DNA from: Escherichia coli
GTDB taxonomy: Bacteria; Pseudomonadota; Gammaproteobacteria; Enterobacterales; Enterobacteriaceae
Assembly (NCBI RefSeq): GCF_003334385.1
Contig: NZ_QOWN01000033.1
Length of the DNA stretch: 48,307 nt
Reading direction: 5' to 3' (one strand)
The notes beneath the pieces were generated by a model, which saw nothing but the letters and a program-made list of their open reading frames with translations, did no database searches and was not told where the DNA came from. This document shows positions 1 to 268 of the stretch, in pieces. Numbering within the stretch: position 1 is the stretch's first letter; every line of letters starts with the position of its first letter. A program made the position numbers and the translations under genes.

Positions 1-21
1 GTTATCGTGAGAGTAATTCAT
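1..21 (-). CDS. insL: IS186 transposase, first 7 codons only (MNYSHDN...); runs off the window
   Basis: ATG at 21..19 on the minus strand followed by AAT TAC TCT CAC GAT AAC, matching the recalled N-terminus of the IS186 transposase. Confidence 0.55.
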
Positions 22-76
22 CGGCACGTTAAATCATATCAGGCGTAATACCACAACCCTTAAGTTAGCGCTTATG
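1..76 (-). mobile_element. IS186: Terminal 76 bp of an IS186-type (IS4 superfamily) insertion sequence, including the inverted-repeat end; the element continues beyond the window start
   Basis: Reverse complement of 1-76 reads CATAAGCGCTAACTTAAGGGTTGTGGTATTACGCC...ATGAATTACTCTCACGATAAC, which I recognise as the IS186 end plus the start of its transposase. Homology to glpF stops abruptly at 76/77. Confidence 0.72.
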
Positions 77-268
77 GCCGGAAACCCCTGCGGTCAGGTA
101 GATGGCCATTGCCACCCCCAGTCCCCAAATGACACTGATTTCCCACTGACCAAAAGACGCACCAGCGACTTTTAGTGCTGCAACGCAACCCACACCGAAG
201 AAAATCAACAACCCGGTACCGAGGAATTCAGCAATGCACTGGCCTTTCAAGGTTGATGTTTGACTCAT
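77..268 (-). pseudogene. glpF: glpF (glycerol facilitator aquaglyceroporin) 5' fragment: codons 1-64 intact, then interrupted by the IS186 end
   Basis: ORF 65..268 translates to MSQTSTLKGQCIAEFLGTGLL...AIYLTAGVSG, the GlpF N-terminus, then HKR-stop encoded by the IS end instead of the expected AHLNPAV (first NPA motif). Confidence 0.85.

Follow-up and report, generated by a model that had tools for sequence, protein, structure and literature searches.

IS186 insertion as the probable cause of a truncated glpF gene in a phylogroup-A Escherichia coli

The glpF gene of the E. coli strain studied here breaks off after codon 64, where its sequence gives way to a terminus of the insertion sequence IS186. 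The best explanation overall, which we hold with a probability of roughly 0.85, is that IS186 transposed into glpF of a phylogroup-A E. coli, knocking out the gene. The junction lies at the start of a 48,307-nucleotide stretch of DNA (NCBI RefSeq assembly GCF_003334385.1, contig NZ_QOWN01000033.1), which was analyzed at its full length and is called the window throughout. The features that bear on the argument, in window coordinates, are as follows.

1..76, minus strand: transposase-proximal (left) end of IS186/IS421; the element runs on past position 1
1..21, minus strand: codons 1–7 (MNYSHDN) of the InsL transposase, opening with the ATG at 21..19 and co-oriented with glpF
54..76, minus strand: 23-bp terminal inverted repeat, CATAAGCGCTAACTTAAGGGTTG in the minus-strand reading; a perfect inverted repeat in the reference copy
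65..268, minus strand: truncated glpF open reading frame (ORF list and translation), 64 GlpF codons followed by HKR and TAA (67..65) from the IS end
77..268, minus strand: glpF codons 1–64 (by identity to MG1655), all before the first NPA motif (residues 68–70)
77..86, minus strand: predicted left copy of a 10-bp duplication, GGTTTCCGGC in the minus-strand reading, inferred from 7/7 reference copies
85..88, minus strand: GGGG half-site in canonical register, −12 to −9 from the IS end (reference-copy comparison)
269..692, minus strand: glpF–zapB intergenic region with the glpFKX promoter and operators, intact and without a difference from MG1655

IS186 belongs to the IS4 family and encodes a DDE transposase. 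Positions 1–76 of the window matched IS186/IS421 elements in 2,180 E. coli genomes with 100% identity over all 76 nt; these elements are annotated in RefSeq as 'IS4-like element IS421 family transposase', and genomes carrying this end have a median of 3 copies. The reference IS186 copy, located between dnaJ and mokC, is 1,339 bp long with perfect 23-bp terminal inverted repeats, and its 370-aa transposase begins MNYSHDN from an ORF start 55 nt inside the element end. The same 23-bp repeat, CATAAGCGCTAACTTAAGGGTTG, is present without a difference at window positions 54–76, and the InsL ATG stands at the same distance from the IS end as in the reference, the remaining 363 codons falling outside the window. 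In the annotated reference copy the transposase coding sequence starts at the equivalent of window position 21 and the element terminates at the equivalent of position 76. An earlier note, made from the letters of the window alone, had identified bases 1–76 as an IS186 terminus and placed at 21..19 a transposase ATG that reads out of the window; alignment to the annotated copies bears out both identifications.

Identity to glpF ends at 76/77, and complete-genome matches to window positions 1–400 begin at base 77. Directly before GCCGG, the intact gene reads ...GATGCGC and the window ...GCTTATG, which places the break between 76 and 77, where the earlier note had also put it. Among 5,426 complete E. 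coli genomes, none aligned across the glpF/IS186 junction, and all aligned from base 77. The IS and glpF parts were recognized by exact sequence identity rather than by a statistical signal, so that chance plays no part. The identical junction was found in a separately built assembly (Logan) of the public run SRR10357324, in which contig SRR10357324_257 corresponds to window positions 49–10149 with 0 mismatches over 10,101 nt, junction included, and the exact 67-aa product was called on two Logan contigs. The junction is therefore not the artifact of one assembler.

On the glpF side, window positions 77–268 (minus strand) comprise 192 nt identical to nt 1–192 of MG1655 glpF and translate as MSQTSTLKGQ...YLTAGVSG, which are GlpF residues 1–64 without a difference from WP_000084268.1 (MG1655). 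The truncated product has 67 residues and the C terminus GVSG-HKR*, in which HKR and the stop codon come from the inverted repeat. PF00230 (the MIP domain) still matched this product. The two NPA motifs of GlpF lie at residues 68–70 and 203–205, and both are absent; in place of a full-length 281-aa channel with two NPA motifs, the product ends at residue 67. Because the truncation precedes both motifs, functional GlpF is lost. Judged by its translation, the 67-aa product is a pseudogene fragment rather than a functional GlpF member, and such a stub cannot form a glycerol or metalloid channel. The 64 intact N-terminal codons and the 67-aa product devoid of NPA motifs had been read from the letters in the earlier note, and identity to MG1655 and the ORF at 65..268 uphold that reading. 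The operon context upstream of glpF (promoter, divergent zapB, rraA, menA and beyond) is collinear with and identical to that of MG1655. Since window positions 77–8982 show zero differences from MG1655, the glpFKX promoter and the start of the operon are intact.

We compared the target site with seven full IS186 copies extracted from different genomes and sites. All seven were flanked by a 10-bp target-site duplication in the register GG|GG-N6-CC|CC. Their left flanks read GGGG-N6-CC|IS, one with a mismatch in the G-run and one with the run shifted by 1 base. The flank in the window, GGGG-TTTCCG-GC|IS, has its G-run in the same register as 7/7 reference copies. That exact canonical register argues that the IS end arose by transposition at the glpF site, and it is the basis for predicting the 10-bp duplication: the insertion most likely duplicated GGTTTCCGGC. 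One copy of the predicted duplication is visible (window positions 77–86); IS186/IS421 duplications are 10 bp and occasionally 11 bp long. Given a 10-bp duplication, the IS-terminal ATG (…GCGCTTATG) would stand in a different frame from the rest of glpF.

The target itself is degenerate. The consensus for IS186 is 5′-GGGG(N6/N7)CCCC-3′ (Lee et al., PMC5009759), and 7 of 59 IS186 insertions deviated from it by 1–2 bases (PMC5009759). In MG1655 and SCU-104, the nearest complete genome, the empty site reads GGGG TTTCCG GCGC, with two mismatches in the right half (GCGC versus CCCC), so that the glpF target matches 6/8 consensus bases. The 48-kb window contains approximately 270 sites with two mismatches, each as good as the glpF site, and an exact consensus target occurs nowhere in its whole length. 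The glpF site is thus a plausible yet non-preferred target for IS186. The earlier note had regarded the GC-rich flank as fitting the preference of the element; GC-richness as such says little, given the 6/8 match and the many equal sites, and the register of the GGGG run, shared with 7/7 reference copies, is more informative.

In the proposed course of events, IS186 inserted at GGGG-TTTCCG-GCGC, co-oriented with glpF. With the glpF promoter and start codon intact, translation now yields the 64 GlpF codons, HKR from the terminal repeat and a stop, and the rest of glpF together with glpK–glpX would follow on the far side of the 1.34-kb element. No other reading is nearly as economical as a simple insertion; with it, the right IS end ...GCGCTTATG would join GGTTTCCGGCGCGCATCTTAAT, and IS186 would adjoin GGTTTCCGGC-GCGCATCTTAAT, from glpF codon 65 onward. 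Long untranslated RNA is a typical substrate for Rho-dependent polarity. Transcripts crossing IS186 would carry approximately 860 nt of untranslated RNA from the transposase stop to the glpK ATG (857 nt with the modeled right junction), the insertion lying about 650 nt upstream of the glpF end, and expression of glpK and glpX would drop through Rho-type polarity.

A consensus scan detected no sigma-70-type outward promoter in IS186, on either strand, or at the modeled right junction, and no convincing terminator was found on the IS186 sense strand. A literature search for an outward or hybrid promoter at the right end of IS186 gave nothing useful. Because no outward promoter was found, polarity on glpK and glpX is a reasonable inference from the modeled sequence; some read-through into glpK may occur because the transposase ORF is co-oriented and translated. 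glpF is established as the first gene of glpFKX (see also bioRxiv 10.1101/2023.03.15.532724). The strain would be expected to grow poorly on glycerol, above all at low concentration, and to take up less Sb(III) and As(III). Both predictions, defective glycerol uptake or use and lowered metalloid uptake, are testable in the isolate.

The window ends in multi-copy repeats on both sides: opposite the IS186 end, its last 77 nt (48231–48307) are the rrnB P1 promoter region, with a median of 4 occurrences per genome. Almost certainly, then, the window is an entire short-read contig broken at repeats, and the 76-nt IS overhang resembles a k-mer-sized overlap. Since the contig ends in repeats, it includes neither the remainder of IS186 nor the second junction nor glpK.

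We looked for the second junction by modeling duplications of 7–14 bp and searching for the exact downstream products. The in-frame products that would start from the IS-terminal ATG after a 9- or 12-bp duplication (221 and 222 aa) were absent from a collection of 15 billion proteins. Products from internal starts (207 and 136 aa) were found only in frameshifted or fragmentary glpF of noisy assemblies, with no IS junction, and a degenerate DNA pattern fitting either junction had no match in JGI metagenome contigs or GTDB representative genomes, two collections that do not contain the source of the window. Many public contigs carry a glpF split into an N-terminal fragment of approximately 56–72 aa and a C-terminal ORF of 207 or 136 aa, without an IS. 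In some of these the neighboring genes are fragmented as well (GCA_900450065.1, GCA_026226595.1), and such contigs look like products of frameshift or indel errors in noisy assemblies, not of biology.

Other readings of the junction were weighed against a simple insertion. IS186 at glpF could mark a rearrangement breakpoint, the DNA beyond it being inverted or deleted and the 3′ part of glpF with glpKX displaced or lost. This reading draws on the frequency of IS-mediated recombination in E. coli (PMC5009759), on the median of 3 IS186 copies in genomes that carry the element and on the failure to find the second junction in the protein, metagenome and genome collections searched. The missing junction is, however, explained by which collections were searched, nothing positive speaks for a rearrangement, the exact canonical G-run register shows that the visible end arose by transposition at this site, and the side within the window is perfectly collinear with MG1655 and SCU-104; we regard a breakpoint as unlikely. 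It is extremely unlikely that glpF of the strain is really intact and that the junction stems from chimeric assembly or from a minority subpopulation. A short-read contig with repeat ends and only 76 nt of IS would allow it, but the Logan assembly of SRR10357324 has the same junction with 0 mismatches over 10,101 nt, and random chimeras would not reproduce a break that coincides exactly with the IS terminus and keeps to the canonical target register. In a mixed population, moreover, the contig would presumably have stopped at base 77 and not run 76 nt into the IS.

Two further readings concern the consequences of the insertion. It might uncouple or activate glpK, with transcription from IS186 or transposase read-through making glpK expression independent of GlpR/CRP and of GlpF. 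We keep this as a minor and improbable rival because glpK became constitutive through a transposon inserted at the glpF 3′ end, and the co-orientation of IS186 with the operon would suit it. Against it stand the scan for sigma-70-like promoters, negative for both strands of IS186 and for the modeled right junction, and the position of the insertion, which would leave some 860 nt of untranslated RNA ahead of glpK. It is very unlikely that the knockout is adaptive, in the sense that a commensal lineage was selected, for instance by metalloids or by toxicity of glycerol flux, and now holds a transposase gene under the glycerol- and cAMP-regulated glpF promoter. If that were true, IS186 transposition would be coupled to carbon-source signals through the glpF promoter, and the lineage, seen in at least two Logan contigs, would have been selected for loss of GlpF together with reduced GlpK. 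Selection of the insertion for metalloid tolerance in particular is speculation.

Insertions of the same element are known from the lon (capR) promoter and, as hotspots in mutation-accumulation lines, from menC and fimA (PMC5009759; PMC12844343). The glpF insertion shares with them the element, the terminal sequence, the G-run register and the inactivation of a gene or promoter, but the target in glpF is no consensus hotspot, having GCGC instead of CCCC as its right half. IS5 upstream of the glpFK promoter activates glpFK, a case of 'directed mutation' discussed in PMC5493358 and PMC12844343. There too an IS element changes the E. coli glpFK(X) operon, although IS5 occupies an upstream activating site and IS186 here lies in coding sequence and causes a knockout.

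The closest laboratory counterpart is the glpF::TnphoA strain OSBR1, an arsRBC-deleted mutant selected on antimonite (Sanders et al. 1997, as cited in PMC1440775). In that arsRBC-deleted background, glpF disruption conferred resistance to As(III) and Sb(III) (Sanders 1997, as cited in PMC1440775). Both are insertional disruptions of glpF for which loss of As(III)/Sb(III) uptake is expected; unlike the TnphoA mutant obtained by antimonite selection in an arsRBC-deleted laboratory strain, the present allele carries a natural IS. In the glpK^C allele, a transposon inserted at the glpF 3′ end rendered glpK expression constitutive and raised it (Vimala & Harinarayanan 2016, as cited in bioRxiv 10.1101/2023.03.15.532724). 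This insertion resembles the IS186 allele as a mobile-element insertion within glpF, one that changes glpK expression, but it adjoins glpK, whereas codon 64 is the site of the IS186 insertion and the scan of that element showed no outward promoter.

Disruption of glpF appears uncommon in nature. Of 5,426 complete E. coli genomes, 5,423 carry the gene without interruption, and in one of the other three it is only the origin of the record that divides it; for this reason the lesion is rare and probably recent, and shows no trend. In the literature that could be searched, no glpF::IS186 allele was reported. Such rarity agrees with a recent insertion of neutral or slightly harmful effect, or with a local adaptation, and gives no sign of a widespread adaptive route. 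The allele is new but of a thoroughly known kind, a strain-specific IS186 knockout that involves no new mechanism. With it the known IS186 targets gain one non-consensus site, and it illustrates how a draft contig that breaks off a few dozen bases into an IS can conceal a knockout in what annotation calls only a 'partial' gene; knowledge of IS186, GlpF and the glp regulon is otherwise unchanged.

From glpF to murI the window and MG1655 are collinear, differing by 16 SNPs and in one REP copy, and the best matches to the window are wild phylogroup-A isolates. Judged by these matches, the host is a phylogroup-A, K-12-like natural E. coli of commensal type. A K-12 laboratory strain was ruled out by the 16 SNPs relative to MG1655 and by the nearest genomes being wild phylogroup-A isolates. 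The nearest complete genome, SCU-104 (NZ_CP053284.1), came from a rectal swab of a healthy student and differs by 8 SNPs over 48 kb. Like MG1655, which has the empty site, it carries an intact glpF; the insertion is therefore younger than the split from SCU-104, a recent and lineage-specific event.

Several minor differences accompany this background. At positions 44406–45753, SCU-104 carries an ISVsa5 (IS10-like) element at the 5′ end of hslU, where a 25-codon fragment is annotated as a pseudogene; hslVU in the window, unlike that of SCU-104, is intact. The argE–ppc intergenic region (35524–35628) has one REP-type unit of approximately 120 bp fewer than MG1655, and SCU-104 is the same as the window in this respect. 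Across the 38 genes compared, the only amino-acid differences from MG1655 are ArgH C338S (39237) and MetB T339S (11865), and SCU-104 has the MG1655 residue at both ArgH 338 and MetB 339. The other coding-region SNPs relative to MG1655 are all synonymous. The stop codon of btuB is lost (window positions 47411–47440, plus strand; SNP 47413), TGA in MG1655 being AGA in the window, and BtuB is extended by 9 residues (RTTSHRAGV) beyond its C-terminal Phe. Masking of the C-terminal aromatic residue could hamper outer-membrane assembly of BtuB, the receptor for B12, colicin E and phage BF23. Read in the frame of murI, which overlaps btuB, the same SNP is synonymous (TCT to TCA, Ser). The 60 nt around it matched exactly in 1 of 5,426 complete E. 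coli genomes, that of SCU-104, in which a 623-aa BtuB is annotated.
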